From positions 17,894 through 81,893 of the forward strand of contig CANQFG010000001.1 in the NCBI GenBank assembly GCA_947598395.1: a stretch of 64,000 nt of DNA, in the 5' to 3' direction. A program made the translations under genes and the position numbers. This stretch comes from an uncultured Bacilli bacterium (GTDB taxonomy: Bacteria > Bacillota_I > Bacilli_A > RF39 > UBA660). Of this stretch, positions 12,749-31,672 are shown one piece after another (position 1 is the stretch's first letter; every line of letters starts with the position of its first letter). Under the pieces are notes generated by a model. The model did not search any database. It had not been told where the DNA came from and saw only the letters and a program-made list of their open reading frames with translations.

Positions 12749-12985
12749 TCTAATCCCTCTTTCTAAATAAAAAAAGCCACGAATCTAAGGACGGATATTT
12801 CCGCGGTACCACCTTAGTTCATGACTAATCATGCTTCTTAAAATCTTAACGCGATTCGACGATCGACACTCCTGTGATGAATTTCATTATTTATTTTAAT
12901 TTAAGATACTCTCAGCCGCTGATATCTTTTCTCTTATCAATACAATAAATAACTACTTGTGCACATTCTCCGTGTCACTGGTTAT
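12749..12985 (-). promoter_or_regulatory. T-box riboswitch leader of pheST, with a sigmaA-type promoter at its 5' end
   Basis: The minus strand reads AAGGTGGTACCGCGG (T-box consensus AGGGTGGNACCGCG, plus-strand 12801..12813). A terminator hairpin plus U-run follows just before the pheS RBS. Promoter TTGACA-17-TAAAAT lies at about 12985..13013. Confidence 0.8.
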
Positions 12986-15285: not shown

Positions 15286-17052
15286 TTAATTGGTTGGAGC
15301 TAAAGCGAGGCGAAAGCCATCGCCTCCATTTCCCGCACCAGTGTTCCTATTGAAGCCAAACTGTCCAGCTATAACTCCGTTGCTGTAATATCCGCCTCGA
15401 ATGAACCAAGGATACAACGGGTCAACGAAATTGGAAGAGTCAGCGTACCAACGATTGTGATATCGATTTACACCATCTCCATCTTGATAATTAGAAAATG
15501 GCCCCATCTCACCTGTAGCGTCTCCTAATATCATTTTAGTAGATCCATTCATAGTACTTTCATTATCATAAACATCGAAATATTTCGCATTTAAAGTTTT
15601 TAATTCATCAGTTATGAATCCACTAGTATCTTTTGACGATTCAGGTACATAAGCTGCTACATACTCCCATGCTCCTCCGGACATATCATAGACACCAGTT
15701 ATATTTCCCGTCGTACTTGCGGTAAATCCATTTGTCGTGTTCCATTCGGTATTAAAGTTTGCACCATCACCAATTTGACCTGACAATTTATTTTGATCAG
15801 TATCAGTTAAATCTGCATATCCAGTTTTGTATAAACTATTGTTATTAATAGTTACTTCCTTATTTATTCCAAATATTGAGTGACTTAAATAGGCTACTGC
15901 GCCCCATTCAGTATTCTTTAACATATGGGAATTTAATGCATTTTTATATTCTTTTGCAGCATCAAAGAAAGTTTTAACATTCGCTCCCCGCCATGAGTAC
16001 AAACCTGGCTTAACAACTATATTAGTTGATGCACCGGTAGCTTTTTTGGCATCTTCTGCACTATTAGCATCTTTATATCCAACTTCAAACTTACCAATCC
16101 AAAAACCATTTCCTCCAAAGGCTAGGAAAGCGGGATGAGTCATGTATTCACCGTTGGAACATTCACCAATATCGCCACTTACTTTTGGTGTTTTACATGA
16201 GACACCATCGTTTTCGGTTGTATCATTTGTATCAAATTCAATGTCGATGGTATGTATTCCTACATTTTCATTTGTCGTCTCAACATTCCATAATCGATAT
16301 TTATATTTGGGTATCCATACAAACATCGATTCGACTTTTGACATGTCTATTGTTTCGCCATCATCTGAGGCTTCCACTTCATCATTTAAAATTACTGCAT
16401 TAGCCCATCTCTTTTCACAATAGTTATACCAATCAGAATTGTCTTTACTTACTTTTGTTATTTCTCCATTATCATTAATCGTTACTGGTATTAATTTATT
16501 TTCTTCATCAAGAGTTGGTATTGGAATATTTTCACAACTATTCTCTGCTAATAAAACTTCCGGATTATCGTCTCTCTCCGTTGCCGTTGCTGTTATCGTA
16601 CATGTAAATTCTTCCGAAATAGACTCAATGCTTGATTTTTTAAGTTCTACTGTTACCGTTCCACTTGCCCGACTTTGGGCTTTGATTATATCTACAGGCA
16701 TTTCACTTTTTATCGTGACATATTCATTAAACTTCTCTTGATTTTTTGGTACACATTCGATCTCGACTGTTGCATCATATTGCCGTGAATTATTGGTTAC
16801 TTCAAATTCAAGAATGGATGTCTCTCCAATGGTTTTTAATTCACTAGTTTCATATGTAATTTTCTTTCTTGTCTCTTCATCAATTACTTCTCGACTTTTA
16901 TCTTTACCATCAATTATAGCTTTGGAAAAATAAATATCATAATCATCTTTATTAAAACCAAGATTTATTACTCCATTTATTGTCAATGTTGCTGTTACTA
17001 AAGCAAAACCTATTGTCATTAAAATTAAAGCTATTATTATTCCTTTTTTCAT
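15286..17052 (-). CDS. Secreted or membrane-anchored protein with a C-terminal FGE/SUMF1 (sulfatase-modifying-factor-like) domain, paralog A
   Basis: N-terminal signal-anchor MKKGIIIALILMTIGFALVTA. C-terminal FGE-domain signatures NTEWGAVAYLSHS, GVYDMSGGAWEYVAAY, RGGYY...GFRLALAP. About 75% identical to paralog B (21064..22845) over the C-terminal half. Confidence 0.75.
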   Translation of the reverse strand: MKKGIIIALILMTIGFALVTATLTINGVINLGFNKDDYDIYFSKAIIDGKDKSREVIDEETRKKITYETSELKTIGETSILEFEVTNNSRQYDATVEIECVPKNQEKFNEYVTIKSEMPVDIIKAQSRASGTVTVELKKSSIESISEEFTCTITATATERDDNPEVLLAENSCENIPIPTLDEENKLIPVTINDNGEITKVSKDNSDWYNYCEKRWANAVILNDEVEASDDGETIDMSKVESMFVWIPKYKYRLWNVETTNENVGIHTIDIEFDTNDTTENDGVSCKTPKVSGDIGECSNGEYMTHPAFLAFGGNGFWIGKFEVGYKDANSAEDAKKATGASTNIVVKPGLYSWRGANVKTFFDAAKEYKNALNSHMLKNTEWGAVAYLSHSIFGINKEVTINNNSLYKTGYADLTDTDQNKLSGQIGDGANFNTEWNTTNGFTASTTGNITGVYDMSGGAWEYVAAYVPESSKDTSGFITDELKTLNAKYFDVYDNESTMNGSTKMILGDATGEMGPFSNYQDGDGVNRYHNRWYADSSNFVDPLYPWFIRGGYYSNGVIAGQFGFNRNTGAGNGGDGFRLALAPTN

Positions 17053-17084
17053 GTCGATCTCTGCTCCTATTTTCCATTTTCTCT

Positions 17085-17120
17085 ATTGTATTGCACCCCC
17101 CCCAATTGCTTATTTTTCAA
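17085..17120 (-). promoter_or_regulatory. Promoter of FGE paralog A with a poly-G8 tract (C8 on the plus strand, 17096..17103) in the -35/-10 spacer
   Basis: Minus strand TTGAAA (17120..17115), then a 19-nt spacer AATAAGCAATTGGGGGGGG, then TGCAAT (17095..17090). RBS AGGAGC precedes the ATG. The segment is nearly identical to the promoter of paralog B. Confidence 0.6.
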
Positions 17121-17123
17121 CAT

Positions 17124-17146
17124 GAAAAAACTCACCGAAGTGAGCT
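17124..17146 (-). terminator. Rho-independent terminator of the upstream transporter gene
   Basis: Minus strand GCTCACTTCGGTGAGTTTTTT: a perfect 5-bp stem, tetraloop and U-run. Confidence 0.7.
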
Positions 17147-17154
17147 TAATATTA

Positions 17155-18594
17155 CTAAATATATGTTAGTATTGCTAAGATAATCATAATGACTACTAAT
17201 AATGAAATAGCAAATTTCCAAATATGTTTAATCCATTCACTATAACGAACATTCATCATCGATAAACCTAACATTAACATGACACTAGTAGGCGCTATAA
17301 AACTTGCAAATCCATATGAAGTTTGGAATATTAAAGCACCAATTGAAGAATTACTTGCCGTCGTAAATAATGAACCAATTAATTGATTAATATATTGGAA
17401 ATCAACAGCAAATACACTAGTTAAAGCACCTGATATAAATAATGTAAAGAAATTATTTCCAATGCTCATAATCTTACTAACAACTACCGGAATTGTTGGG
17501 AAGATTAAACTAATTTCAAGAGTCGTAAATATTACAAATAATACGACAACTGATTTACCAGCAATTTTAAATCCTTCACCATATTCATCGAGAATTTTAT
17601 CAAAAGGAATATGGTAAATAATCTTAATGATAAATGTCGTAACAAATAATACACAAGCAGCTCCAAATAAGTCCCAATTACCAAATACATATGGCATTGA
17701 ACTAGCCGCATTGGAATATACAGAACCTAAAATATAAGAGAATATTGGTGTATTAAATAATTCGGCATTGACAACCCAATCATGAACATCAGTAAATAGA
17801 GTTACCGTAAATGCTGATTCCCAACCAATAAAGGCAAGAATTAATAATACTACCGCAACAAACATCACAATAGCAAGAGGAATAACACTTATCTTATGTT
17901 CTTTCTTATTTTTAGCTTTCTTAGTCTCTACTACTTCTTTAGCAAAAGGATCAACTAATAAAGCGGCATCTTTTTTCTTACTCATTCTTAAGAATGTAAA
18001 GAATAACAATAAGATATAAGCAATGGCAAACAAGATAATTGTCGTTATAAGTTCAAAGCCATATTTTACTTGTAAGGCCGTTACTAACGTACCAACAATC
18101 TTTGTCGAATATGTTGCTCCTAAGATACCAACTAATGCGCCACCAAACGTTGCCGATACACCGACAACTTTATCAACTTTTAATTTACTTAAAATACTAA
18201 TAGCAAATGGTATTAAAGCAAGCAATACATAATAATCCGTAGCTACTCCTGCCCATGCTGCAAAGAATAAAGTTGAAATTGCAACAAATATTTTTTCCTT
18301 TCCTGTAAATATTTTCGCAACACCATCAGTAAGTTTTTGATATGCTTCCGTACTTCCTAAAAACTTATAGAAACCCGAAATAACAAAAACAAACATAAGA
18401 GTCGTCGTAAAATAATACATACCTAAAAGACCATAAGTAGAGATATCAAAAAGACCAACTCTTACGATTTCATCAGTTACTAATTCGCCATTTTGATAAT
18501 AGGCATTACTACATAACCAACTCAATAAAATGGCAATTACTAACACGATACCAGATGCTTTGAATAAATCATGTTTTTCAAAAAATTTCTTCAT
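17155..18594 (-). CDS. YfcC/AbgT-like multi-pass membrane transporter (anaerobic C4-dicarboxylate/basic amino acid carrier superfamily)
   Basis: About 12 predicted TM helices throughout. Start at MKKFFEK with RBS AGGAGG. Family assignment rests on overall architecture. Confidence 0.5.
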   Translation of the reverse strand: MKKFFEKHDLFKASGIVLVIAILLSWLCSNAYYQNGELVTDEIVRVGLFDISTYGLLGMYYFTTTLMFVFVISGFYKFLGSTEAYQKLTDGVAKIFTGKEKIFVAISTLFFAAWAGVATDYYVLLALIPFAISILSKLKVDKVVGVSATFGGALVGILGATYSTKIVGTLVTALQVKYGFELITTIILFAIAYILLLFFTFLRMSKKKDAALLVDPFAKEVVETKKAKNKKEHKISVIPLAIVMFVAVVLLILAFIGWESAFTVTLFTDVHDWVVNAELFNTPIFSYILGSVYSNAASSMPYVFGNWDLFGAACVLFVTTFIIKIIYHIPFDKILDEYGEGFKIAGKSVVVLFVIFTTLEISLIFPTIPVVVSKIMSIGNNFFTLFISGALTSVFAVDFQYINQLIGSLFTTASNSSIGALIFQTSYGFASFIAPTSVMLMLGLSMMNVRYSEWIKHIWKFAISLLVVIMIILAILTYI

Positions 18595-18681
18595 TTCTAA
18601 CCTCCTATAACCCAATTATATCATATTCTTAAAAATAGGAAGCATTTTTTTATAAATAATATTCCCGAATTATAGCCCTTA

Positions 18682-19491
18682 TTAGCGAAATATTTGTTTT
18701 TGATATTCACTAGTAACTAATTCTAACTTTTTAGCTATCGGATGATTATTTAAATAAAGACTAGCTAATTCATTAGAAATTACGGGATCTAAACCTTTAG
18801 ATTGAACTTTTTCAAAGATTATATCCCGCGTCAATGGTCTTCTTTGGGGTACGATAACTTTGGTATCATTATTCGTCTCATAGAATCCATAACCATATAG
18901 ATCATCTCTATTATCGACACATATATAATTAGTACTTACTTCTTTACTATGCCCTAAAGGATAAATATATCTCGTTACAACCATCTCATATGGATTGCGA
19001 TTATTCAAATAATTAGTAAATATCTTAATATCGCCATAACGACTTGGAATTTGATAATATGACGATAGACTTATAATGGGCTTTTCTAATTCTCTTCCAC
19101 TACTCAATCCATGATAATAACAAAAATAATTTAATTCATCGCCATAAGGATTTTCCATACTATATAATTGCCGAACATCATTGGTCTTATTATCTATGAT
19201 ACTTACCGTTGGATAGATATAATTTAAATTAATTGAATATTCATTTTCCGGCGTTAAAAAGCTGACAATTGAACCATCTTTAAAACATACACAGTTGACT
19301 TCTAATGTTCCATTTTCCCAAAATAATGCAACATAGTTTTCGCCATCTAAAGCATCGTCTATCATTTTAGATACGATGATCTTTTGATTGCCATCCTCAC
19401 AAATAGCCGCAATGATCGTATTAGTATATTCTGCTAATAATTCAAATATCTTTTGATTTCCCTCAAATGGCAAACTTTCAAATTTAAGCAT
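18682..19491 (-). CDS. Hypothetical protein
   Basis: ORF with RBS GAGGTG before MLKFESL, no recognisable motif. Confidence 0.45.
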   Translation of the reverse strand: MLKFESLPFEGNQKIFELLAEYTNTIIAAICEDGNQKIIVSKMIDDALDGENYVALFWENGTLEVNCVCFKDGSIVSFLTPENEYSINLNYIYPTVSIIDNKTNDVRQLYSMENPYGDELNYFCYYHGLSSGRELEKPIISLSSYYQIPSRYGDIKIFTNYLNNRNPYEMVVTRYIYPLGHSKEVSTNYICVDNRDDLYGYGFYETNNDTKVIVPQRRPLTRDIIFEKVQSKGLDPVISNELASLYLNNHPIAKKLELVTSEYQKQIFR

Positions 19492-19575
19492 AATAAACAC
19501 CTCGAAGATATATCTTATCACAAATAAGGTATTATTTTAATATCTATTACATAAAAATTTAGTGAGGTGAAAAAA

Positions 19576-19911
19576 ATGAATGGTGCATATTATCCTAATC
19601 CCACATTTCCAACTAATATGAATAATTATCAAAGTGATGGTACTGAGGCCAATTCAACATTGCCAATGGAACAAAGTTATATCGAAAATATCTTAAGACT
19701 TAATAAAGGAAAAAAAGCCAAGGTATTCTGCGCATTTCCCGATAGCAATGATTGGCGAGATCGCATATACGATGGCATAATTGAAGAAGCCGGCAAAGAT
19801 CACTTGATAATGAGCAGTCCTTCAACCGGCGATTGGTATTTAATTCCCTTAATTTATGTCAATTGGGTTGAATTTGAAGAAAAGCTTAATTATACTAAAT
19901 TTTATTCATAA
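19576..19911 (+). CDS. gerQ: Spore coat protein GerQ (YwdL)-like
   Basis: SYIENILRLNKGKKA...GIIEEAGKDHLIMSSPSTGDWYLIPLIYVNWVEF matches the conserved C-terminal GerQ block as I recall it. RBS GAGGTG precedes the ATG at 19576. Confidence 0.55.
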   Translation: MNGAYYPNPTFPTNMNNYQSDGTEANSTLPMEQSYIENILRLNKGKKAKVFCAFPDSNDWRDRIYDGIIEEAGKDHLIMSSPSTGDWYLIPLIYVNWVEFEEKLNYTKFYS

Positions 19912-20425
19912 AATAATTTAGATTATTAACTTCTTCTCCTAAAGTAGTCGGTGCATAATGTCCCGGATATATGCGAATATCTAAAGGATACTTTAAAATC
20001 TTCTTAATACTTTGACGCATATCGAAAGGACTACTTTCTTTAAAATCAGTTCGTCCAATACTATTTTTAAAAATAAAATCTCCCGAAAATAAAACTTTAT
20101 CTTCTTTAAAGTAAATAGAAATTGAATCATCAGTATGTCCTGGTGTCATAATTATTTCAAAGCTAAAATTACCTATCGAAAATTTTCCTTCTTGCAAATT
20201 AGTCTTGGAATAAATTGGGCAGTTATAACGGACGAGTATTCCATTTAACGCACCAATATGATCAGCATGAGTATGGGTTAAAATAATACCTAGTACTCTT
20301 TTTTCAATGTTCGAAATAATCTTTTCAGCTTCATCTCCAGGGTCGATTATCAAGCAGTTTGTTCCCCTTTCGATAATATAACAGTTTTCTTGTAAAGGGC
20401 CAACGACAATTGTTTTAATATTCAT
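19895..20425 (-). CDS. MBL-fold metallo-hydrolase (glyoxalase II-like)
   Basis: HTHADHIG metal-binding motif. Start placed at MNIKTIVVGP with RBS AGGTGAG, because the longer track ORF has an unsupported N-terminal extension. Confidence 0.75.
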   Translation of the reverse strand: MNIKTIVVGPLQENCYIIERGTNCLIIDPGDEAEKIISNIEKRVLGIILTHTHADHIGALNGILVRYNCPIYSKTNLQEGKFSIGNFSFEIIMTPGHTDDSISIYFKEDKVLFSGDFIFKNSIGRTDFKESSPFDMRQSIKKILKYPLDIRIYPGHYAPTTLGEEVNNLNYFMNKI

Positions 20426-20480
20426 TTTCTCACCTATATTTATCCTTTTTCTTATGATATAATTATACTTAGGTGGTAGC

Positions 20481-21029
20481 ATGAATGCAATAATAATAGT
20501 CATCTTAACATTAATAATCATCATAGCTTTTCTCATAATGATATATATAAATATGGCTAATAAACTCGTCTATTCTAAGATACGAATTGATGAAGCCGAA
20601 AAATCGATAATCGATGAACTAAATAGACGTTGTGAATTGATAAAGAAATGCCAATCGACAATTGAAAAAAATACGAAGATGGACTTAACGCTATTTCATG
20701 AATTAGAAAAGATTCAAACGACATCCATAAGTAGTTATGATTTGGAGCGTAAGGTTACAGAAGCGATTAATATTATCTATTTAGTTAAAAATGATTATCC
20801 TAAAATAGAAGAGAAAAAAGATTTTCGCGAAACACTTAGAAAATTAAATGAGAGTGATACGAAAATTGATGCGGCTAAATCTTTTTATAATAAAAACAAT
20901 AATAAATTAGTTACTCTATTAAAAAAATTTCCCTATAATTTAGTAGCAATGACTAAGGGAATAAAGATTCAACCTTACTACGAAGGTAAAGACATCTTTA
21001 ACGAAGATGATGATGGTATAAAAATATAG
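20481..21029 (+). CDS. lemA: LemA family membrane protein
   Basis: N-terminal TM helix and the C-terminal LemA signature SFYNKNNNKLVTLLKKFPYNLVAMTKG. Confidence 0.75.
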   Translation: MNAIIIVILTLIIIIAFLIMIYINMANKLVYSKIRIDEAEKSIIDELNRRCELIKKCQSTIEKNTKMDLTLFHELEKIQTTSISSYDLERKVTEAINIIYLVKNDYPKIEEKKDFRETLRKLNESDTKIDAAKSFYNKNNNKLVTLLKKFPYNLVAMTKGIKIQPYYEGKDIFNEDDDGIKI

Positions 21030-21063
21030 ACAAACAAAAAAGTCAAACGATTTGGTTTGGCTT

Positions 21064-22845
21064 TTATTGTGGGGCTAAGACTAGGCGGAAGCTATGGTCT
21101 CGATTTGCGCCATTAATCCAAACAAAGTAGAACTGTCCAGCTAGAACACCATCTTTATAATCACCACCTCGAAAAAACCAAGGCAACGACTGGGAAGCAA
21201 AATTGGAAGCATCTGCATACCAACGATTGTGCCATCTACTTGATTTGTCTCCATCTTGATAATAATTAAACGGCCCAAGCTCACCGGTAGCATCTCCCAA
21301 TATCATTTTAGTATATCCATTTACTTCACTATCTTCATCATATACATCAAAAAATTTAGTACTTAAAGCACTTAACTCTTCTTTGCTAAACCCGCTGGAA
21401 TTTTTTTCTGATTCAGATACATAAGCTGCTACATATTCCCAAGACCCGCCAGACATATCATAGACACCCGTTATATTTCCCGTAGTACTAGCAGTTAACC
21501 CATTTGGCGTGTTCCATGTCGTATTAAATTCGGGGCCATCTCCATATTCGCCAAACATTTTACTTTGGTCTGTTGTTGGTAAAGCCGCATAACCCGTTTT
21601 ATATTGATCATTATTATTTATTGTTATTTCTTTATTTATCCCGAATATTGAATGTGATAGATAGGCAACTGCTCCCCATTCAGTGTTTTTCATCATATGA
21701 GATTCTAAATTTGTATTATATTCTTTAGCTGCTTCAAAGAAAGTTTTAATATTTGCTCCCCGCCACGAATATTCATTTGGTTTAACAACTATATTAGTTG
21801 ATTTACCATTAGTTTGAATGGCATTTTCTGCATTACTAGCATTTTTGTATCCTGTTTCAAATTTGCCTACCCAAAAGCCATCGACTTCAAATGATTTAAA
21901 TGCTGGATGGGTCATATATTCTCCGTTATTACAACTTCCTATATTTCCACTAGTCATTGGTGTTTCACACGATACGCCTTCGATATTTTCAGTGTCTTTA
22001 GTATCAAAAATTATTTCTATGGAATGGGCATTATATAATGGATTTGTTACATTTACATTCCATAAACGATATTTATATTTTGGTATCCACACAAACATTG
22101 CTTCAATATCGTTCATTTCAATTTGTTGATTATCTTCATAATTTTTTGATGGTTCACTTTTTAAAATAACGGCATTAGCCCATTTTTTATTGCAATAATC
22201 ATACCAATCAGGATTATCATTACTTACTTTTGTTATTGTTCCTTCATCATTTATTGTTACTGGTATTAATTTTGTTTCATCGCCTAAATTTGGTACTGCC
22301 ACACTCTTACATGAATCTTCAGCAATATACTTGTCTCCATCTTGATCTCTTTCTGTTGGTGTTACGGTTAGACTACACTTAAACTTTTCGTCAATTTCTT
22401 CTGTACTTACTTTCTTTAGTTCAACTGTTATTGTTCCTTTTCGACTCTCTTGGGCTTTTACTGTTAATTTCTCTGGACTCGATTTTATTTCCGTATATTT
22501 ACTAGTTTGATTTTCAGATACATTTCCATCATCTTCTACCCTTTTACAATCGATAGTTACAGTAGCATCATATTGTTTACTATTATTCATTACTCGATAT
22601 TCTAGTATACTTCTATCACCTATTGTACTTAGATCTTTTGTTTCAAATGTTATACTTTTCTTTTCATTTGTTTCAATTAATTCATTATTGACTACGCCAT
22701 CAAGTATAGCTTCACTAAAGTATACATCAAAGTCTTCGGTATCATATCCATAATTTATGGTACCTGTTATCGTTAAAGTTGTTGCTACAGCTGCAAAACC
22801 AATACTCATTATTACTAATGCGATTATTATTCCTCTTTTTTTCAT
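21064..22845 (-). CDS. Secreted or membrane-anchored protein with a C-terminal FGE/SUMF1-like domain, paralog B
   Basis: MKKRGIIIALVIMSIGFAAVATT signal-anchor. C-terminal NTEWGAVAYLSHS, GVYDMSGGSWEYVAAY, RGGDY...SFRLVLAP. Paralogous to 15286..17052. Confidence 0.75.
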   Translation of the reverse strand: MKKRGIIIALVIMSIGFAAVATTLTITGTINYGYDTEDFDVYFSEAILDGVVNNELIETNEKKSITFETKDLSTIGDRSILEYRVMNNSKQYDATVTIDCKRVEDDGNVSENQTSKYTEIKSSPEKLTVKAQESRKGTITVELKKVSTEEIDEKFKCSLTVTPTERDQDGDKYIAEDSCKSVAVPNLGDETKLIPVTINDEGTITKVSNDNPDWYDYCNKKWANAVILKSEPSKNYEDNQQIEMNDIEAMFVWIPKYKYRLWNVNVTNPLYNAHSIEIIFDTKDTENIEGVSCETPMTSGNIGSCNNGEYMTHPAFKSFEVDGFWVGKFETGYKNASNAENAIQTNGKSTNIVVKPNEYSWRGANIKTFFEAAKEYNTNLESHMMKNTEWGAVAYLSHSIFGINKEITINNNDQYKTGYAALPTTDQSKMFGEYGDGPEFNTTWNTPNGLTASTTGNITGVYDMSGGSWEYVAAYVSESEKNSSGFSKEELSALSTKFFDVYDEDSEVNGYTKMILGDATGELGPFNYYQDGDKSSRWHNRWYADASNFASQSLPWFFRGGDYKDGVLAGQFYFVWINGANRDHSFRLVLAPQ

Positions 22846-22882
22846 GTCGATCGCTGCTCCTATTTTCTATTTTCTCTATTGT

Positions 22883-22912
22883 ATTGCACCCCCCCAGTTG
22901 CATTTTTTTCAA
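22883..22912 (-). promoter_or_regulatory. Promoter of FGE paralog B with a poly-G7 tract (C7 on the plus strand, 22889..22895) in the spacer
   Basis: Minus strand TTGAAA (22912..22907), then an 18-nt spacer AAAATGCAACTGGGGGGG, then TGCAAT (22888..22883). Otherwise nearly identical to promoter A. Confidence 0.6.
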
Positions 22913-22944
22913 CATAAAAAAAGGCCCCTTATTACGGGACTTAA

Positions 22945-23604
22945 TTATAACTGCCAATCGATAGGTTCAAGGCCATTTTTCTTTAAAAACTCATTTGTTC
23001 GCGAAAAAGGCTTACTTCCAAAGAAACCATTTCGGGCACTAAATGGAGAAGGATGTGCACTTTCGATAATCAAATGTTTAGGATTAGTTATATAGACTTT
23101 TTTACTACGAGCAAAACTACCCCAAAGGATAAAGACGACGGGTTCATCATGCTCATTAATAGCTTTAATGATATAATCTGTAAACAACGACCACCCTAAA
23201 TCTTTATGTGAATTAGGCGAATCTTTAACTACTGTTAGAGTACTATTTAATAATAAAACTCCTTCTTGGGCCCATTTTGTCAAATCACCTTTTTCAGATG
23301 GTTTAATACCTAAGTCAGTATATAATTCTTGATAAATATTTTTTAAACTAGGCGGTAATTTTATACCCTCTTGAACGGAAAAGGATAAACCATGCGCTTC
23401 CCCTTCCCCATGATAGGGATCTTGTCCCATAATTACTACTTTGACATTTTTATATGGCGTCAATTTTAGAGCATTAAACATGTTCTCTCTTAAAGGGTAA
23501 ATCGTCTTAGTTTGATATTCATGATCAACTATAGACATAAATTTCTTAAAGCCATTGCTTTGCCAAATGACACTTAAAACTTGATCCCAATCATTACCAA
23601 TCAT
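22945..23604 (-). CDS. ung: Uracil-DNA glycosylase
   Basis: VVIMGQDPYHGEGEAHGLSFSV water-activating loop and a C-terminal HPSPFSA motif. Confidence 0.92.
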   Translation of the reverse strand: MIGNDWDQVLSVIWQSNGFKKFMSIVDHEYQTKTIYPLRENMFNALKLTPYKNVKVVIMGQDPYHGEGEAHGLSFSVQEGIKLPPSLKNIYQELYTDLGIKPSEKGDLTKWAQEGVLLLNSTLTVVKDSPNSHKDLGWSLFTDYIIKAINEHDEPVVFILWGSFARSKKVYITNPKHLIIESAHPSPFSARNGFFGSKPFSRTNEFLKKNGLEPIDWQL

Positions 23605-23612
23605 ATACTACC

Positions 23613-24044
23613 TCACTTATGATATGTTTCATTATTATTAATTTTAAAAGCACGATATATTTGTTCGAGCAATAACCCACGAAAAAGGCCATGCGGATAC
23701 GTATTATTGCCAAATGATAAATGATAATTAGCTATATTTTTGATACGTTCATCTAAACCATCCGAACTACCAATAATAAAACTGATATTGGCATAATGTG
23801 CTAACCATAGATCAATATTTTGGGCTAATACTTTGCTAGATAAATTCGTTCCTTCGATTTCTAAAGTAACGACAAAACTATTCTTTATCGCCTTTAAAAT
23901 TAAATCACCTTCCTCTTTAATATTACTATCTTTTAATTCAATAATATTAAGTTTATGGTATTTATTTATTCTTTTACAATAATCATTTATCATTTCAGAT
24001 AAATATTTTTCTTTAATTTTACCAACACATATTATATTAATCAT
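23613..24044 (-). CDS. rlmH: 23S rRNA (pseudouridine1915-N3)-methyltransferase RlmH
   Basis: MINIICVGKIKEKY SPOUT-family N-terminus. The ATG overlaps the yycJ stop as ATGA, and the track's longer ORF starts at a TTG. Confidence 0.85.
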   Translation of the reverse strand: MINIICVGKIKEKYLSEMINDYCKRINKYHKLNIIELKDSNIKEEGDLILKAIKNSFVVTLEIEGTNLSSKVLAQNIDLWLAHYANISFIIGSSDGLDERIKNIANYHLSFGNNTYPHGLFRGLLLEQIYRAFKINNNETYHK

Positions 24045-24805
24045 ACTTTTACACAATCCGTTTTCTCTCTTTGCGTTGCAACTTTTAAATTATCAAATTC
24101 GATATTATTATCCTTTAGACCACTTCGTACGGTTTCAAGAGCAATCTCGGGAGAATTATTTTCCTTTGACAGATGGGCAAGGACAACTTGTTTCGTATTG
24201 GGTCCAATAAATTTACTCAAATAAAATGCACATTGGCTATTGGAAAGGTGTCCTTTATCGCCCCGAATACGAGCCTTTAACCATGGTGGATATTTGCCAT
24301 GCATCAAAAGTTCGATATCATGATTAGATTCAAAGATATAGAGGGAATGATTGCTTAGTAAATCAAATAACTTATGATTTATATAGCCCGTATCGGTAAC
24401 ATAGACAATCGAGGAATCCCCTTCTTTAAAAATATAGCCACGACTAGCTGGAGCATCATGACTCGTATGAAAGATTTCAATTGTTAAATCGTCAAATTTC
24501 ATCTCATGATTTTCAAAGCATAAATTGGGATATTCATATAAGAATGGTAACTCGGGTAGCATCTTTTCATCGAGAAATACGAGGGGGTTATTGCTCTTAA
24601 AAAATTGCTTCATAGCCCCAGTATGATCGGAATGCGTATGCGTTATAAAGACGTAGTCGATTTCAGAAGGACTGACGTTGAGCTCGGCTAATTTCTCAAC
24701 GATATACTTATTATTCATTCCCAAATCAATTAAGATCTTTTTGCTTTTCGTTTGAATAAAAGTACAATTGCCTTCTGAACCGCTCGCTAATACGGAAGCC
24801 CACAT
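24041..24805 (-). CDS. yycJ: MBL-fold metallo-hydrolase YycJ/WalJ
   Basis: VLASGSEGNCT...ITHTHSDHTG matches YycJ. The yycJ-rlmH adjacency matches B. subtilis. Confidence 0.8.
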   Translation of the reverse strand: MWASVLASGSEGNCTFIQTKSKKILIDLGMNNKYIVEKLAELNVSPSEIDYVFITHTHSDHTGAMKQFFKSNNPLVFLDEKMLPELPFLYEYPNLCFENHEMKFDDLTIEIFHTSHDAPASRGYIFKEGDSSIVYVTDTGYINHKLFDLLSNHSLYIFESNHDIELLMHGKYPPWLKARIRGDKGHLSNSQCAFYLSKFIGPNTKQVVLAHLSKENNSPEIALETVRSGLKDNNIEFDNLKVATQREKTDCVKV

Positions 24806-26322
24806 GAGAATATCGAGTTACATGGGTCCACTGCAACTCCTCCTTGATATGGTTTACCTTTAAAGACCCCTAAGTGAAGATGGGTACCCGTAACGCCACC
24901 GGTATTGCCAATCAAACCGACGCGTTGTTCGCGATCAACTTTTTGACCGACACTGACGAGAATCTTCGACAAATGCATATAGACGGTATAATAGCCATTG
25001 CCATGATCGATATAGACCGAAAGGCCTTCACTCTTATCGCGATTATAATTAACATTAAATACCGTACCAGCTTGAACGGCATAAGCTGGCGATCCATAGC
25101 CATTATTGCGTCCAATGACGGCAATATCGATACCTTGATGTTGCCGACCCCAACGCCACTTGAAGCCCGAAGTTATCGTATATGGACTAGCCGTTGGCCA
25201 ACTCCAATCGTCATTACCTTGACCGGTTTCATGAACATAAGATCCGCCCCCTAAGACTTTCGTACCCCGCGTAATTACTTCATTGACCTCTTGTTTAATC
25301 TTATCGACTTTTAAAGTATTTAAATTTTGAATTTCACCATTGATATATTTGATATTTTGGGTAACGCGGGAAATACCATCTTCACCTTTTTGCGTTACTT
25401 CCTTATAATCATTAAATTTGGTCTTATCATCGACATATTCCGTCTTATAGGCAATTTTGATATCGCTGACAACCGTCTTATAGTAAACGACGCTTACTAA
25501 GGGCGAAATTAAGCTAACATTGATCTTTTCACCAGGCGATAATAGGACATTGGCACTCATATATTGCGGGTTAGCAATCAATAATTCTTCCATATTTAAA
25601 TGATTATCTTCGGCAATCATTTCGAGGTTTTCGCCCTCTTTAGTCGTATATTCTTTTTGATGATCGAGCGTACCAAATAATAGATATTGTGATAAGGTTT
25701 CGGCATCCGTAAAGATATAATCTTCCGTCGAAATATAATCCTTTTTAATCGTAATCTTTTCTTCAAAGTATAAAGACGTTATAATCGAACCCGTATCCGT
25801 AATCTCTTCTTGCGTTTCCTTTTCAAAATCACTCAAATTCTCGGCCCCAATAAAGGCCGCAGCCGTATTATATAGGGCTTCATTGATGATATCTTTATCC
25901 ATCAAATATATTTTTAAAGGGGCCCCTGGTTCCAATATTTCGCCATCATTGATGACTTTTTTCTCCGTATACGTTATCGTAACGACATAACCCTCGATAG
26001 TAAAGGGATCGACATCCTTAATTTTATTATAAATATCGCGGGCATCTTCCACCGTATCATTATAGGTATAGATCTTTTGAACATTTAAGCCATCGGGCGG
26101 ATAAACTTTATCGACATTATAGACATTTTTTATTTCCGATTGTTCTTCATCGATCAAGGCAAGCAATTCATCTTTTGAATCGATTAAACCGACTTTTTCG
26201 CCATCGAGATAGACTTGAAAGGCCGCGACGGGATCATCGGCAACTTTCGTATCCATGCCGACAAAAAACAAAAGAAAAGATAAAATAATGGTTAAAAGCC
26301 CCCCAATAACTTTAATTTTCAT
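24787..26322 (-). CDS. M23 family metallopeptidase (LytM-like) with an N-terminal TM anchor
   Basis: C-terminal HQGIDIA...GNTGGVTGTHLHLGVF M23 motifs. N-terminal TM helix with RBS AGGTGA. Confidence 0.8.
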   Translation of the reverse strand: MKIKVIGGLLTIILSFLLFFVGMDTKVADDPVAAFQVYLDGEKVGLIDSKDELLALIDEEQSEIKNVYNVDKVYPPDGLNVQKIYTYNDTVEDARDIYNKIKDVDPFTIEGYVVTITYTEKKVINDGEILEPGAPLKIYLMDKDIINEALYNTAAAFIGAENLSDFEKETQEEITDTGSIITSLYFEEKITIKKDYISTEDYIFTDAETLSQYLLFGTLDHQKEYTTKEGENLEMIAEDNHLNMEELLIANPQYMSANVLLSPGEKINVSLISPLVSVVYYKTVVSDIKIAYKTEYVDDKTKFNDYKEVTQKGEDGISRVTQNIKYINGEIQNLNTLKVDKIKQEVNEVITRGTKVLGGGSYVHETGQGNDDWSWPTASPYTITSGFKWRWGRQHQGIDIAVIGRNNGYGSPAYAVQAGTVFNVNYNRDKSEGLSVYIDHGNGYYTVYMHLSKILVSVGQKVDREQRVGLIGNTGGVTGTHLHLGVFKGKPYQGGVAVDPCNSIFSCGLPY

Positions 26323-26333
26323 TAATTAATCAC

Positions 26334-27686
26334 CTAGTTTTCTTGAACATTTTTTATATAATTGCGAAAATTACTGATATTCTTTTCAAATAGTAACTCA
26401 ATAGTTCCATTAGCCCCATTCCGATGCTTGGCAACGATTAATTCCGAAAGAGAAACGGGATTTTCCTCCAATGTTTGCTTATTATAATAGTCATCGCGAT
26501 AGAGGAAGGCAACGATATCGGCATCTTGTTCGATGGATCCCGACTCCCGTAAATCCGACATAATTGGTCGTTTATTTTCGCGGGCTTCGACGCTGCGCGA
26601 CAATTGCGCTAAGGCGATAACGGGCGTATTCAATTCCATCGCCATCGTCTTGAGGCTGCGCGAGATATCCGATACTTCTTGTTGCCGATTATTGCCATAA
26701 CCGGGACCGCCACTTATCAATTGAAGATAGTCGATGATAATGAGGCCCAAGCCATTAAATTGGCTATGAAGGCGGCGACATTTAGCTCGAATTTCGGCGA
26801 TAGTAATGCCCGGCGTATCTTCCATATAGATGGGCGAATCGGCAAGTTGACTCATCGCCTCATTGACCTTTTTCCAATCCTCATGTTCCAACCGACCTGT
26901 CCGCAATTTCGTCGTTTCGACGGCACTTACCGAAGAGATCATCCGAAACATCAATTGCTCGGCTCCCATCTCCAAGTTAAATAATGCAACGACTTTATTG
27001 GATGAAAGAGCCGCATTAGTGGCAATATTTAGGGCAAAAGCCGTCTTACCCATGGCGGGACGTGCGGCAATGATTATGAGTTCATTCGGATGCAAGCCAC
27101 TCGTCAATTTATCAAAATCATAAAAACCCGTCGCCACACCCGTAATCTCCTGATTATTTTTGGACAAAGTTTCCAATTGATTGCGCGCCGAAGCTACGAC
27201 CTCTTTGGCCGTCTTAAAATCGCCACTCTTGCGAACCTTCGTTACGGCAAATATCTTCTTTTCGGCAATATCGATAATACTAACGGCATCATTGATCTCA
27301 TCCCGCGCCGAATTTTCGATATCTTCACATACCGAAATTAAATTTCGTCTTAAAGCTTTCTCCCGAATAATATTGATATACGAATCGACATTCGAAGCCG
27401 ACATGACGGAATCGATTACTTCACTTAAATATTCGATACCACCAATCGTATTAATTGGCGTATATTTTTCGATTTCATTTTTTAAAATCGTCGCATCCAT
27501 TTGTTCATGACGTTTATGAATCTCACTCATTGCCTCAAATATTTGAGCATTCTTTGAATCATAAAACATGTCTTTGCTTAACTCTTCCGAGATCTTTTCC
27601 AAAGCGGTACGCGATAAAAAACCACATCCTAAAACTGCCATTTCTGCTTCGATATTTTTGGGTTCTCCTCTATTTATCTCGGCCAT
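26334..27686 (-). CDS. dnaB: Replicative DNA helicase DnaB
   Basis: Walker A AARPAMGKTAF, RecA-like C-terminal domain and arginine finger, 450 aa. Confidence 0.95.
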   Translation of the reverse strand: MAEINRGEPKNIEAEMAVLGCGFLSRTALEKISEELSKDMFYDSKNAQIFEAMSEIHKRHEQMDATILKNEIEKYTPINTIGGIEYLSEVIDSVMSASNVDSYINIIREKALRRNLISVCEDIENSARDEINDAVSIIDIAEKKIFAVTKVRKSGDFKTAKEVVASARNQLETLSKNNQEITGVATGFYDFDKLTSGLHPNELIIIAARPAMGKTAFALNIATNAALSSNKVVALFNLEMGAEQLMFRMISSVSAVETTKLRTGRLEHEDWKKVNEAMSQLADSPIYMEDTPGITIAEIRAKCRRLHSQFNGLGLIIIDYLQLISGGPGYGNNRQQEVSDISRSLKTMAMELNTPVIALAQLSRSVEARENKRPIMSDLRESGSIEQDADIVAFLYRDDYYNKQTLEENPVSLSELIVAKHRNGANGTIELLFEKNISNFRNYIKNVQEN

Positions 27687-27696
27687 CTCTTCACCT

Positions 27697-28134
27697 CTAA
27701 CTCAAATGAACTTTTACTGTTGCAACTACCTTTTTATGGATATTTATTTTCACCTCATGGGTTCCTAGGGTATCTAAGCTATAATCGAGAACGATCTTCT
27801 TCTTATCGATATCATAGCCCTTTTTCTTTAAAGCTTCGGCTACCTGCTTACTCGAAACACTGCCAAAGACTTTGCCATCTTTGCCCTTTTGGACATTGAA
27901 TTCCAATACGATCTTAGCTAGTTCTTCTTTAAGAGCATTGCCCTTTAAAATCTCTTTTTCCTCTTCCTCTTGGCGGAGCTTTAAAGTCTCTTCCAGTTTA
28001 TTTTTATTGGCGGTATTGTACGGAACAGCTAAGCCTTTATTAATCAAGAAATTATTGGCATAGCCATCACTAACATCGATAACTTGATCTTTCTTACCTT
28101 GTTTCCGAACATCTTGAAGCAATATAACTTTCAT
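27697..28134 (-). CDS. rplI: 50S ribosomal protein L9
   Basis: MKVILLQDVRKQGKKDQVIDVSDGYANNFLI. The rplI-dnaB adjacency is the conserved arrangement. Confidence 0.93.
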   Translation of the reverse strand: MKVILLQDVRKQGKKDQVIDVSDGYANNFLINKGLAVPYNTANKNKLEETLKLRQEEEEKEILKGNALKEELAKIVLEFNVQKGKDGKVFGSVSSKQVAEALKKKGYDIDKKKIVLDYSLDTLGTHEVKINIHKKVVATVKVHLS

Positions 28135-28204
28135 CAAAATCCCTCGCTTCCATGTTTATTATTATATCAAAAACTATAAAAAAAAGATACTTTATTAAGT
28201 ACCT

Positions 28205-28420
28205 TTATTTAACATAGGGAATTATACCCATAAAACGTGCTCTCTTAATTTGTTGAGCAATATATCTTTGATGTTTGGCACAAGCACCAGTCATACGACG
28301 TGGCATAATCTTGCCTTTTTCATTTATATATTTAGAAACAATTGCAGCATCTTTATAGTCAACGTCTTTTCCAGCACACATTTGACAAATTTTCTTTTTC
28401 TTGCGATAAAATTCTGCCAT
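28205..28420 (-). CDS. rpsR: 30S ribosomal protein S18
   Basis: CAKHQRYIAQQIKRARFMGIIPY. Confidence 0.93.
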   Translation of the reverse strand: MAEFYRKKKKICQMCAGKDVDYKDAAIVSKYINEKGKIMPRRMTGACAKHQRYIAQQIKRARFMGIIPYVK

Positions 28421-28434
28421 TCCTATTTTCCTTT

Positions 28435-28896
28435 CTAAAATGGTAAGTCATCATCACTTAAAACGACTTCCGAACCAAAATCCTTATATGGATCTTCATT
28501 TAAATCGGCCGGTTGAACTGATGATACATCACCCATACTATAATCCGGTTGCGCATCCATTCCATAATCATGGGCGCCACCACTTTTACTTCCCAAGAAT
28601 GTAACGCTGTCGGCTACAACCTCGGTAACATATCTCTTAGATCCATCTTGTGCATCATAACTCCGCGACGTAATGCGTCCCGTAATGCCAATTTGAGAAC
28701 CCTTTTGACAAAACTTCGCGACATTTTCCGCTTGTTTGCGCCATATGACGACATTGATAAAATCCGTTTGCCGTTCGCCATTGGCATTCATCCGCCCATT
28801 GATGGCAACCGTTACCGTCGTCGTCGAAATGCCCGTAGCCGTCGTCCGCAATTCGGGATCTCTCGTTAATCTTCCTACTAAAACAACATTATTCAT
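28435..28896 (-). CDS. ssb: Single-stranded DNA-binding protein
   Basis: MNNVVLVGRLTRDPELR OB-fold N-terminus and an acidic C-terminal tail DDDLPF. Confidence 0.93.
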   Translation of the reverse strand: MNNVVLVGRLTRDPELRTTATGISTTTVTVAINGRMNANGERQTDFINVVIWRKQAENVAKFCQKGSQIGITGRITSRSYDAQDGSKRYVTEVVADSVTFLGSKSGGAHDYGMDAQPDYSMGDVSSVQPADLNEDPYKDFGSEVVLSDDDLPF

Positions 28897-28899
28897 GAA

Positions 28900-29190
28900 T
28901 TACTCCTCATCTAATCTAATAATCATATGTCTGATAACATTTTCATTGATACGAGCTTTACGATCAAGTTCTTGAACTAATTCCTTAGATCCATTAAAAT
29001 CTAATACATAGTAGTTACCAGATATCTCCTTATTGATAGGATAGGCAAATTTGCGGTTTCCCATCTCTTTAGAATCTGTTAATTCACCGTTCATTTCCTT
29101 AATAATGGCTTTTAAGTCTTCAACTTCCTTAGTTAAAGTAGCTTCTTCCAAAGTTGTCTTAAGAATGAACATCATTTCATATTTGTTCAT
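28900..29190 (-). CDS. rpsF: 30S ribosomal protein S6
   Basis: MNKYEMMFILKTTLEE with RBS AGGAGGTG. The rpsF-ssb-rpsR operon is the conserved arrangement. Confidence 0.93.
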   Translation of the reverse strand: MNKYEMMFILKTTLEEATLTKEVEDLKAIIKEMNGELTDSKEMGNRKFAYPINKEISGNYYVLDFNGSKELVQELDRKARINENVIRHMIIRLDEE

Positions 29191-29300
29191 TTCACACCTC
29201 CTTATGGTCTATTTCGGCTTACATAGTAAGCAAGGAGCTTTTCGCTCGTAAGTATTATAACAAAGTCATATGCATTTGTAAACACTAAAAATAGGCATTA
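29191..29300 (-). promoter_or_regulatory. rpsF operon promoter (TTTACA-17-TATAAT) and a leader carrying two hairpins, a possible S6:S18 autoregulatory leader
   Basis: Minus strand TTTACAAATGCATATGACTTTGTTATAAT. The leader hairpins are GAGCGAAAAGCTC and CTTACTATGTAAG, then AAGGAGGTG. Confidence 0.45.
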
Positions 29301-29336
29301 TTCATTAATAAATATATGCCCACTTAATTAGAAATA

Positions 29337-30443
29337 TTATTTTGTCACATTAAACCGGAAATAGGCAATATCGCCATCTTGCATCAAGTAATCCTTGCCT
29401 TCGAGGCGCACGCGACCAGCTTCCTTAACGCGCAACTCCGAACCATAATTCTTTAAGTCATCGAAGCTCATGACCTCGGCCTTGATAAATCCCTTTTCAA
29501 AGTCCGTATGAATGATACCGGCACAACTAGGCGCTTTCATGCCCTTTTTAAAGGTCCATGCCCGACATTCATCCGATCCAGCCGTAAAAAAGGTAGCCAA
29601 ACCCAATAAATCATATGTGGCAAAGATCAATTTATCCAAACCGCTATTCTTTATGCCCAAGTCTTCCATGAAAAGAGCGCGTTCATCATCCGTTAAACCG
29701 GATAATTCCTCTTCGATTTTGGCACACATGACGATCATGCGCGCTCCCTCTTTTTGTGCATACGCGCCGACGAGTTCCGTATATTGATTTTTGCCAACGG
29801 CAATATCATCTTCGGAGACATTGGCAACATAGATCATCGGCTTATAGGTAATAAAGGAGAAATTTTTAAGTATTGCTTGCTCTTCTTCCGTAAAGTCCAC
29901 TAGCCGCAAGGGAATGCTCGCTTCCAAGTTTTTGACACATTTATTTAAGGTATTTATCTCCAATAATTCCTGTTTATCCTTAGTCATTTGGGCCTTTTTG
30001 CCAATCTTATTTAACCGATTAGTAATAATCTCTAAATCCGATAGAATTAATTCGACATTGATGATATCGATATCCCGAAGGGGATCGACCTCACCTTCGA
30101 CGTGCGTAATATCCTTATTATCAAAACACCTGACGACTTCGACGATTGCATCGACCTCGCGAATATGACTCAAGAACTTATTTCCGAGGCCCTCGCCATT
30201 CGAAGCTCCTTTAACGAGTCCCGCAATATCGATAAATTCATACGCCGTCGGTACGACCCGTGCTGGTTCATATTTACTGGCCAAATAATCCAAGCGACTA
30301 TCTGGTACCGTAACGACACCGACATTGGGGTCAATAGTTGCGAATGGATAATTGGCGGCCAAGATATTCTTTTTTGTAATCGCATTGAATAATGTCGACT
30401 TTCCGACATTGGGAAGGCCAACAATTCCCGCTTTTAAACCCAT
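29337..30443 (-). CDS. ychF: Ribosome-binding ATPase YchF
   Basis: MGLKAGIVGLPNVGKSTLFNAITK G1 motif and a TGS C-terminal domain. The track's 14-aa N-terminal extension lacks an RBS. Lies upstream of rpsF as in B. subtilis yyaF. Confidence 0.93.
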   Translation of the reverse strand: MGLKAGIVGLPNVGKSTLFNAITKKNILAANYPFATIDPNVGVVTVPDSRLDYLASKYEPARVVPTAYEFIDIAGLVKGASNGEGLGNKFLSHIREVDAIVEVVRCFDNKDITHVEGEVDPLRDIDIINVELILSDLEIITNRLNKIGKKAQMTKDKQELLEINTLNKCVKNLEASIPLRLVDFTEEEQAILKNFSFITYKPMIYVANVSEDDIAVGKNQYTELVGAYAQKEGARMIVMCAKIEEELSGLTDDERALFMEDLGIKNSGLDKLIFATYDLLGLATFFTAGSDECRAWTFKKGMKAPSCAGIIHTDFEKGFIKAEVMSFDDLKNYGSELRVKEAGRVRLEGKDYLMQDGDIAYFRFNVTK

Positions 30444-30525
30444 ACTATCCCTCATTTCATAGGTAATTATAGCAAACATTGACATTTTTGTGAATAAAAA
30501 ATATAGATCGAAAAATCTATATTCC

Positions 30526-31659
30526 TTAATTACTCTTTAATGTAACATCGACTTTCTTTTCCTTGCCATCGCGAATGAGCGTAACACTTACTTTATCACC
30601 GACGCGATAACGGAAGAGATAATATTTCAAATACATATAATCTTTGACTTTATAATCATTTATCTTCGTAATGACATCGCCCTTTTTAATTCCAGCTTTA
30701 TCGGCTGAACTACCACTGGATACGTCGACGACGACGGCACCTTCTTTAATATCTTTTGCAATACTGATGCCATTATAATCAGCCCCTTCGACGCTCGTCA
30801 TCGTAACACCTAGAACGGGACGCACAACTTTACCCGTCTCTTCGATTTGCGAGGCAACGGAGAGGGCATCTTCAATCGGAATGGCAAAGCCAATATTTTC
30901 GATCGATGTCTCCGAATAAGAACTAGATAATTTACTATTGGTAATGCCAATTACTTCGCCATTGCTATTGGCCAAAGGACCACCACTATTACCACTATTA
31001 ATGGAAGCATCGATTTGCAATAAATTCATATACCACGAATCCGATGAAGTCACTTGCCCGAAGATGTTTTTGCTCGAACCGCTCGACATCTCAACGAGGC
31101 GATCTTTACCACTTAAAATACCTCTCGTAACGGTAAAAGAATAGCTCAAACTAATCGGCGTTCCAATGGCGAAGACCGTATCACCCATGCGCACATCGGC
31201 ACTGGCACCAATCGAAGCTACTTCGATGATATCGTCCTTTGAAACCTCTAAGACGGCCACATCGGCATACTCATCACTGCCTAAAACCTTAGCTTCTACT
31301 TCATGTTCATTGGCAAATACGGCCATGATCTTTTTGGCATTTTCGACGACATGGTGATTGGTTAAAATATAGGCTTTATCCTTATCCGTCTTATAGACGA
31401 CGCCACTTCCCCATCCCGTTACTTCATCATTCTTTAAGATTTCGACGATGACAGTCGCATTATATAGCTTATCGACAGCATCGGCAATACCCTTATCCGT
31501 AACGGTTACTTCTTTTTCCGTCTTATTGACGACATTAGTCGTAAATAATTCATCAAATGGTACATAGTTCATGACGATATCAGCACCGACAGCTATCAAA
31601 AGAATTACGATTAGACATATTATTACGACGTTAATTTTTTTATTTTGTTTTTCATGCAT
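30526..31659 (-). CDS. htrA: HtrA/DegP family serine protease (trypsin-like plus PDZ)
   Basis: Catalytic triad context NHHVVENAKK ... GNSGGPLAN, a C-terminal PDZ domain and an N-terminal TM helix. Start at MHEKQ with RBS GAGGAGTG. Confidence 0.88.
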   Translation of the reverse strand: MHEKQNKKINVVIICLIVILLIAVGADIVMNYVPFDELFTTNVVNKTEKEVTVTDKGIADAVDKLYNATVIVEILKNDEVTGWGSGVVYKTDKDKAYILTNHHVVENAKKIMAVFANEHEVEAKVLGSDEYADVAVLEVSKDDIIEVASIGASADVRMGDTVFAIGTPISLSYSFTVTRGILSGKDRLVEMSSGSSKNIFGQVTSSDSWYMNLLQIDASINSGNSGGPLANSNGEVIGITNSKLSSSYSETSIENIGFAIPIEDALSVASQIEETGKVVRPVLGVTMTSVEGADYNGISIAKDIKEGAVVVDVSSGSSADKAGIKKGDVITKINDYKVKDYMYLKYYLFRYRVGDKVSVTLIRDGKEKKVDVTLKSN

Positions 31660-31672
31660 AATTATCACTCCT

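Follow-up and report, generated by a model that had tools for sequence, protein, structure and literature searches.

Poly-G tracts as candidate slippage-prone switches in the promoters of a putative surface protein family from uncultivated gut Bacilli

The 64,000 nucleotides considered here, referred to as the window, come from an uncultured Bacilli bacterium (GTDB lineage Bacillota_I; Bacilli_A; RF39; UBA660) and span positions 17,894 to 81,893 of contig CANQFG010000001.1 in assembly GCA_947598395.1. The window carries two paralogous genes, copy A and copy B, each preceded by a nearly identical promoter and leader module that contains a run of guanines. This G tract, and its possible role as a length-variable switch of expression, is the subject of this work. 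The window has a GC content of 35.4%, and its gene content is Firmicute-like, with a T-box leader on pheS, a GerQ-like gene and a LysM-G5-M23 peptidase. Both paralogs and their modules lie on the minus strand and, read in the coding direction, the order at each is a terminator, TTGAAA, an 18- or 19-nt spacer that ends in G7 or G8, TGCAAT, AGGAGC and the ATG. The features at the two genes are the following, the promoter elements and ribosome-binding sites being assigned from sequence.

15286..17052, minus strand: copy A gene, coding sequence of 588 aa
17063..17068, minus strand: putative ribosome-binding site AGGAGC of copy A, in a purine-rich leader
17090..17095 and 17085..17090, minus strand: overlapping -10 candidates of copy A, TGCAAT and TACAAT
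17096..17103, minus strand: poly-G tract of copy A (G8), the last 8 bases of the spacer
17115..17120, minus strand: -35-like TTGAAA of copy A, 19-nt spacer to TGCAAT
17128..17147, minus strand: intrinsic terminator of the DcuC-like transporter gene (Pfam DcuC) upstream of copy A
21064..22845, minus strand: copy B gene, coding sequence of 593 aa
22856..22861, minus strand: putative ribosome-binding site AGGAGC of copy B
22883..22888 and 22878..22883, minus strand: overlapping -10 candidates of copy B, TGCAAT and TACAAT
22889..22895, minus strand: poly-G tract of copy B (G7), at the end of the spacer
22907..22912, minus strand: -35-like TTGAAA of copy B, 18-nt spacer to TGCAAT
22924..22940, minus strand: intrinsic terminator of the uracil-DNA-glycosylase gene (Pfam UDG) upstream of copy B

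A preliminary description of this DNA had proposed two paralogs of about 590 residues with some 70 nearly identical nucleotides upstream of each, laid out as TTGAAA, a poly-G spacer, TGCAAT, AGGAGC and ATG, with G8 in a 19-nt spacer at copy A and G7 in an 18-nt spacer at copy B. All of this is borne out by the sequence: compared at full length, the two proteins share 61% identity; the 75 nt preceding the ATG share 91%, against 53 to 78% for the coding DNA and 40%, the random level, for the DNA further upstream. The same description saw a diverged N-terminal half joined to a conserved C-terminal domain. This stands in part, since residues 31-172 are 49% identical and residues 301-530 are 72% identical, but the likeness runs through the whole protein and, over the last 58 residues, identity is back down at 57%. 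A further open reading frame (ORF) of 593 aa, at 6999..8780, was considered as a third paralog and rejected, as it has no similarity to the other two. Exact-protein look-ups of copy A (P0001) and of P0010 found neither on record, and that of the DcuC-like protein led only to a contig already in the data set. Judging from their terminators, copies A and B most likely form separate transcription units, each behind a terminator of its own; and because these terminators lie directly upstream of both modules, the candidate promoter is confined to about 70 nt before the ATG, with the tract included.

The G8 and G7 tracts are longer than the base composition predicts: there are three G/C runs of at least 7 in the 64 kb where about 0.8 would be expected, and the expectation for runs of at least 8 is about 0.15. 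Searching the window for a 22-nt core of the module gives exactly two occurrences, and 100 shuffles give none. In all, 13 paralogous or orthologous copies of the module were collected from this species cluster, and in these the conservation begins at the TTGAAA and its A-run and ends within the signal peptide. The ATGCAACT directly upstream of the tract and the TGCAATACAAT directly downstream of it are nearly invariant among the 13, and both of the overlapping -10 candidates are kept in 12 of them. Length does vary, from A5 to A7, in the A-run that separates the -35-like box from ATGCAACT (window, L079, L080, L086, L087 and L091). Since the A-run and the G-run both vary, two adjacent homopolymers set the length of the spacer, which comes to 18 nt in copy B, 19 nt in copy A and 19-20 nt in the G9 copies. 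The leader was considered as an RNA element as well and rejected: no Rfam family matched it and no stable structure was found, with a folding z-score against shuffles of 0.02 for copy A and of -2.1 for copy B, where there is weak long-range pairing only.

The most direct evidence for a change in tract length comes from an independent assembly of the same locus. Contig L090 (ENA contig NODE_853, ERZ27060145) covers window positions 17051..32845 with 99.87% identity over 15,796 aligned bases. It differs from the window by 19 substitutions and a single indel, and that indel is the copy A tract, which reads G9 in L090 and G8 in the window. The same interval contains 13 A/T runs of at least 7, and these have zero indels between the two assemblies. 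Across the species cluster, the 13 module copies have G7 twice, G8 twice and G9 nine times, with near-identical flanks. The further paralogs, at other chromosomal sites, are found on contigs from the sample of L090, at a similar coverage (4.3-6.0x), and from three sister samples, and their modules are the following.

L079: G9
L080: G9 and G9
L081: G9
L086: G9
L087: G9 and G8
L091: G9 and G9

A family lineage that has no repeat (P0037) served as a negative control, and its upstream DNA is identical in 5 assemblies. To compare tract lengths in related genomes had been suggested with the preliminary description; with this done, lengths are found to differ, both within the cluster (G7-G9) and at the copy A locus (G8/G9). 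The configuration of slipped-strand phase variation which it had recognized is supported by every comparative test that was run, the switching itself being what we infer from it.

Some features of the compared assemblies deserve mention in their own right. The 19 single-nucleotide polymorphisms between the window and L090 are strongly clustered, at 18892..18907, 24587..24614, 25741..25774 and 29595..29655; four of them fall within 16 nt (18892..18907) inside an unannotated 279-aa ORF at 18682..19521. Such clustering points to hotspots or local recombination tracts, and away from uniform drift. Contigs L088 (at both ends), L089, L090 and L091 break off within the promoter module or the G tract, or precisely at one of these. 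Such breaks are expected from a dispersed repeat of about 75 nt, to which heterogeneity of the tract possibly adds; as proof of heterogeneity among reads they were ruled out, because the dispersed repeat alone breaks de Bruijn assemblies. In this group, contigs of metagenome-assembled genomes can be expected often to stop at these genes. A search of the JGI metagenomes with a 20-nt module core gave 4 matches, all by chance and in unrelated contexts, the species lying outside that collection, and a scan of IMG/VR with G7 plus the core gave no match.

The association of long repeats with this protein family extends well beyond the species cluster. In at least 8 unrelated promoter contexts from other genomes, family genes have poly-G of 6-11, poly-A of 16-20 or (AT)7 at the -35/-10 position, as in the following cases.

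TTGAAAATC-G8-TATTATAAAAT: L008, L021, L025
TTGACACC-G8/G10-TATTATATAAT: six copies in one rabbit metagenome-assembled genome (MAG)
...CACAC-G6/9/9/10/10/11-TAT...: six paralogs in one MAG
TTGACAAT-G11: L048
TTGACAAAAGCCTTC-G10-TATACT: L065
A16-A20 abutting TGnTAnAAT: L028, L039, L060, L068
(AT)7 between TTG and the -10 box: L056, L062

In a scan of 713 kb for long simple sequence repeats (SSRs), defined as G/C runs of at least 7, A/T runs of at least 12 or dinucleotides of at least 6 units, 21 of the 39 repeats lie in the 10.8 kb (1.5% of the total) directly upstream of automatically called family starts, an enrichment of about 76-fold. About 12 more were found on inspection to lie upstream of family genes or operons with a mis-called start, or at contig ends inside a module. 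The three repeat types appear, by comparison of their contexts, to have been acquired repeatedly and independently at this promoter position.

Some of these distant promoters show an additional arrangement of the repeat. At L048 (3380..3410) the order is C6-TTGACAAT-G11. A C/G hairpin or cruciform could form here, with the -35 box as part of its loop and with an extended -10 (TGATAAAAT) next to the box. In L034, L041, L042, L045, L050 and L072, at about -50 from the ATG, the sequence leads from a G9-G11 run through a short AT loop and a C-rich CCCCTC or CCTCTC to a stretch of T's; in L072 this hairpin-like element lies upstream of a separate type IV pilin-like gene. The element resembles a terminator or attenuator hairpin with the repeat as its 5' arm, and in this clade the tract might act through termination in the leader and not through spacer length.

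Taken with the position of the tract, these comparisons lead us to read it as a slippage-prone promoter switch by which each paralog is varied separately, a reading to which we would assign a probability of roughly 0.7. According to this reading, copies A and B would be members of a large gene family that provides uncultivated gut Bacilli with binding proteins on the cell surface, each paralog being driven by its own copy of the conserved promoter and leader module of about 75 nt. The G7-G9 homopolymer would form the 3' part of the spacer between the -35-like TTGAAA and the -10-like TGCAAT. Slipped-strand mispairing at replication could add or remove G's and so set the spacer to 18, 19 or 20 nt, the optimum being 17, which would alter the fit of the two hexamers to the sigma-A RNA polymerase. 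Paralogs would in this way be turned up or down stochastically, heritably, reversibly and independently of one another, and a population would display mixed surface repertoires. Most members may be weak or off, with a shortening of the tract turning one of them up, in a manner comparable to tprE/G/J of Treponema pallidum. The effect of tract length on expression, the place of the transcription start, the reversibility and rate of switching and the surface exposure of the products are all inferred here from sequence.

The -35-like box finds some support within the window, in two reference promoters of canonical sigma-A type, both of which can be located on independent grounds.

12784..12979 and 57418..57768, minus strand (the two intervals given jointly): T-box leader of pheS, promoter TTGACA-17-TAAAAT
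12784..12979 and 57418..57768, minus strand (as above): tmRNA gene, promoter TTGAAA-17-TGtTATCAT, with a TG extension

Because these promoters combine TTGACA or TTGAAA with a spacer of 17 nt, TTGAAA is credible as a -35 element and spacers of 18-20 nt would be sub-optimal.

Several points weigh against the switch. The tract lengths are those of consensus assemblies, some of them at 4-6x coverage, where homopolymer calls are least reliable. The same-locus comparison is a single one, window against L090, and the copy B tract is G7 in both. The promoter geometry raises its own questions: the -35 hexamer is degenerate in some module copies (CTGAAA, TTGGAA, GTTAAA, TTGTCA), and all spacers exceed the 17-nt optimum, which would mean either that weak or silent copies prevail or that the actual geometry is a different one. 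TACAAT, which overlaps TGCAAT, may be an alternative -10. Finally, a consensus promoter scan did not call the module sites, the scan itself being no better than shuffles in this DNA.

On a first alternative, the G run is a fixed, static element with no role in switching, and its differences in length reflect neutral drift that followed duplication, or homopolymer errors of metagenome assembly at low coverage. The compared assemblies are indeed at 4-6x, copy B has not changed between the two, and G9 is common to 9 of the 13 module copies, all of which would fit such an element. What makes it unlikely in our judgment is that the tract is the sole indel in 15.8 kb in which 13 A/T runs of 7 or more stayed unchanged, and that repeats are some 76 times enriched upstream of family genes. 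Moreover, three repeat types occupy the same promoter position in unrelated contexts, and therefore a sequence-specific static element is no explanation for them. On a second proposal, the tract is a binding or structural site for a regulator or an alternative sigma factor, and control is environmental rather than stochastic. The module is far better conserved than the coding sequence, as would be expected of a shared regulatory site, and the flanks ATGCAACT and TGCAATACAAT hardly vary. But other lineages swap the poly-G for poly-A or (AT)n between different flanks, and therefore a function of length is favoured over one of sequence; a Pfam scan also found no regulator gene linked to the paralogs in the window. 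We regard a regulator site as quite improbable. Least credible of all is that the module is a substrate for recombination or gene conversion, shuffling 5' ends or expression sites among paralogs with the tract incidental: module and signal peptide are homogenised while the gene bodies diverge, and several contigs break in or at the module as for a dispersed repeat, but no recombinase or invertase is linked to it and no inverted module copy was seen in the window, and homogenisation is likewise typical of SSR-controlled families such as Mycoplasma vlp and therefore does not exclude a slippage-prone switch.

Such a switch would have well-described counterparts. The poly-G tracts of 7-11 in the tpr promoters of T. 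pallidum change in length in vivo and determine how active the promoter is, 8 G's or fewer being permissive at tprE/G/J (PMC7864442); promoter-repeat phase variation has been reviewed elsewhere (PMC11868660). The tpr subfamily II (tprE/G/J), tprL and TP0126 are like the present case in that paralogous putative surface proteins have poly-G of about 7-11 inside their promoters. They differ in their setting, T. pallidum being a spirochete with outer-membrane beta-barrels, whereas here a Gram-positive-type Firmicute has proteins with a fold like that of C-type lectins (CLec) and the formylglycine-generating enzyme (FGE). In Neisseria meningitidis, porA (poly-G) and opc (poly-C) have a homopolymer in the -35/-10 spacer, and its length gives graded or ON/OFF expression. 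These are single genes of another phylum and of other proteins, whereas here the module is copied across a multigene family. The vlp genes of Mycoplasma hyorhinis, described by Rosengarten and Wise in 1990/1991 (cited in PMC11868660), reportedly have a poly-A in the promoter spacer, one tract for each paralog, and combinatorial expression. They share with the present family a conserved block of promoter, leader and signal peptide followed by divergent mature parts. The vlp tract is poly-A, as in some relatives here in which a poly-A of 16-20 lies directly upstream of an extended -10, while the window tract is poly-G; and the Vlps, being lipoproteins built of repeats, have no globular binding domain, unlike the window proteins. 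In Haemophilus influenzae, (TA)n lies between the -35 and the -10 of the divergent promoter pair of hifA and hifB, which serve chaperone-usher fimbriae. The (AT)7 between the boxes of L056 and L062, upstream of pilin-type family members, is similar to it.

The protein family is large, with at least 7,800 database proteins at E < 0.001. None of the 120 matches listed has a precomputed Pfam domain, an NCBIfam search gave no match, and a profile search of PDB sequences gave nothing significant, the variable protein TaqVP appearing at E 0.49 only. Of the GTDB species representatives, those with family members are uncultivated gut MAGs titled "Bacilli", "Tenericutes", "Erysipelotrichaceae" and "Firmicutes", with many paralogs per genome; the hosts include human, mouse, rabbit and other animals. 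An AlphaFold model built with 117 homologs reached a pLDDT of 84 (an earlier AF2 run with 26 sequences was unusable, at a pLDDT of 52). It has a disordered hydrophobic N-terminus, an immunoglobulin-like beta-sandwich (residues ~35-160) and a large C-terminal domain. The hydrophobic N-terminus is predicted to be a signal or an anchor. The C-terminal domain is, in the model, a CLec/FGE-like fold of the kind found in the variable proteins of diversity-generating retroelements (DGRs), with its variable region at the C-terminus, and its best structural neighbours are non-enzymatic variable proteins. The "FGE domain" of the preliminary description is thus right at the level of an FGE-like fold, but the match to Pfam FGE-sulfatase (PF03781) is below threshold in copy A (17.6 bits against a cut-off of 23.3) and absent in copy B; PF03781 is found at E<0.01 in 4 of 26 close homologs. 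Compared with FGE/SUMF (PF03781), the domain is much nearer to the non-enzymatic variable proteins of DGRs, and an enzymatic function is without support.

Additional indications of surface display come from more distant members. The window proteins start with MKKGIIIAL and MKKRGIIIAL and do not have the F+1 and E+5 of a prepilin motif (G-1, F/M+1, E+5), which is likewise absent from all 120 close homologs. Seven of 109 more distant family ORFs (L056, L058, L062, L063, L069, L072 and L077), by contrast, carry this same C-terminal CLec module behind a canonical type IV prepilin leader, KGFTL(I/V)ELL, and this speaks for surface display. Judging by these leaders, pilin scaffolds seem to present the CLec domain in some lineages.

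The likeness to DGR proteins is also seen in the neighbourhood of close relatives. Downstream of a 73%-identical homolog (P0004, at locus L081) lie a 158-nt repeat that copies the 3' end of this gene, a MutS_I-like ORF, bAvd and a reverse transcriptase (RT), and the differences between the homolog's variable region (VR) and the template repeat (TR) fall at TR adenines in 9 of 9 cases. The same cassette, in the order of target gene, TR, small MutS_I-like ORF, bAvd and RT, follows family genes at six other loci, with adenine mismatches of 20/20 (L003), 15/17 (L009), 10/11 (L031), 11/12 (L061), 10/10 (L074) and 15/15 (L076), and the MutS_I-like ORF is 51-63% identical at all seven. The family is thus often targeted by hypermutation through retroelements. 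In the window, the equivalent segments are the following.

15289..15462, minus strand: VR-equivalent C-terminal segment of copy A (residues ~531-588), aligns to the L081 VR/TR
21067..21234, minus strand: VR-equivalent C-terminal segment of copy B

Among 26 close homologs, copies A and B included, the columns that correspond to AAY codons in the L081 TR have an entropy of 3.14 bits, against 1.06 for the other columns of the segment (Mann-Whitney p = 2.5e-6). Therefore, the window genes bear the footprint of DGR mutagenesis at their C-termini, a link which the preliminary account of the proteins lacked; its FGE-like fold is retained, and the label becomes a CLec/FGE-like domain of the DGR-variable-protein type. 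In contrast to known DGR variable proteins of the CLec fold (TaqVP 5vf4, TvpA 2y3c, Mtd 1yu0), the 64 kb around the window genes contain neither a TR nor an RT: tblastn with the L081 proteins found no RT, Avd or MutS_I-like gene in the window, itself a portion of one 117-kb contig in a larger genome, and neither 3' end has a second copy there. The L081 TR was ruled out as the template of copy A by its many mismatches at non-adenine positions, and the copy B protein is identical in the two strains (window and L090) that differ by 19 SNPs. Because the window is without RT, Avd and TR, the L081 TR is not the template and copy B is unchanged, present DGR activity on copies A and B is unproven.

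Both layers of variation do meet on one gene or operon elsewhere. L081 has a G9 promoter together with VR, TR, Avd and RT, and L061 has a G10 promoter and a DGR. We put forward, tentatively and with somewhat less than even confidence, a two-layer system in which promoter slippage selects the paralogs on display and a DGR, in cis or in trans, rewrites their ligand-binding surface.

The proposed switching mechanism, that of the classical repeat in the promoter spacer, is itself known (T. pallidum tpr, Neisseria porA, Mycoplasma vlp), and what is new is the lineage and the protein family. The lineage is one of uncultivated commensal gut Bacilli; the family has a DGR-type CLec fold with no Pfam match above threshold, and its promoters have three repeat types that appear to have been acquired independently. 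The co-occurrence of a poly-G promoter with an active-looking DGR on one gene or operon (L081, L061) is new as well. Full-text literature searches found no description of this combination of repeat promoter and DGR, and none in which repeats control the phase of a DGR variable protein; the author of the preliminary description was not aware of FGE-domain surface proteins under poly-G phase control. Almost all known cases of promoter-repeat phase variation come, to our knowledge, from pathogens in culture, such as Neisseria, Haemophilus, Mycoplasma, Treponema and Campylobacter. If the switch is real, it would offer a way into how unculturable gut Bacilli change the surface that they present to host, phage or partner cells, and would give a Firmicute example of phase variation and DGR hypermutation acting on the same proteins. 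It would also mean that MAG consensus sequences hide functional heterogeneity of such tracts and break at modules of this kind.

Besides the two promoter tracts, the window has a third long homopolymer, a G9 run at 38655..38663 on the minus strand, inside an ORF (38198..39229) that encodes an Acyl_transf_3 membrane acyltransferase (Pfam E 3e-31). The run is currently in frame (..LQLGGGQVL..), and its context, TTGAAAAActaCAACT-G9, resembles that of the promoter modules. An exact look-up found the protein not on record elsewhere. The acyltransferase is a candidate for a surface-modifying enzyme that varies in phase at the level of translation. Directly upstream of it, at 39292..41254 on the minus strand, are KilA-N and RhuM/Bro-N genes, a stretch that looks like what is left of a mobile element or prophage.

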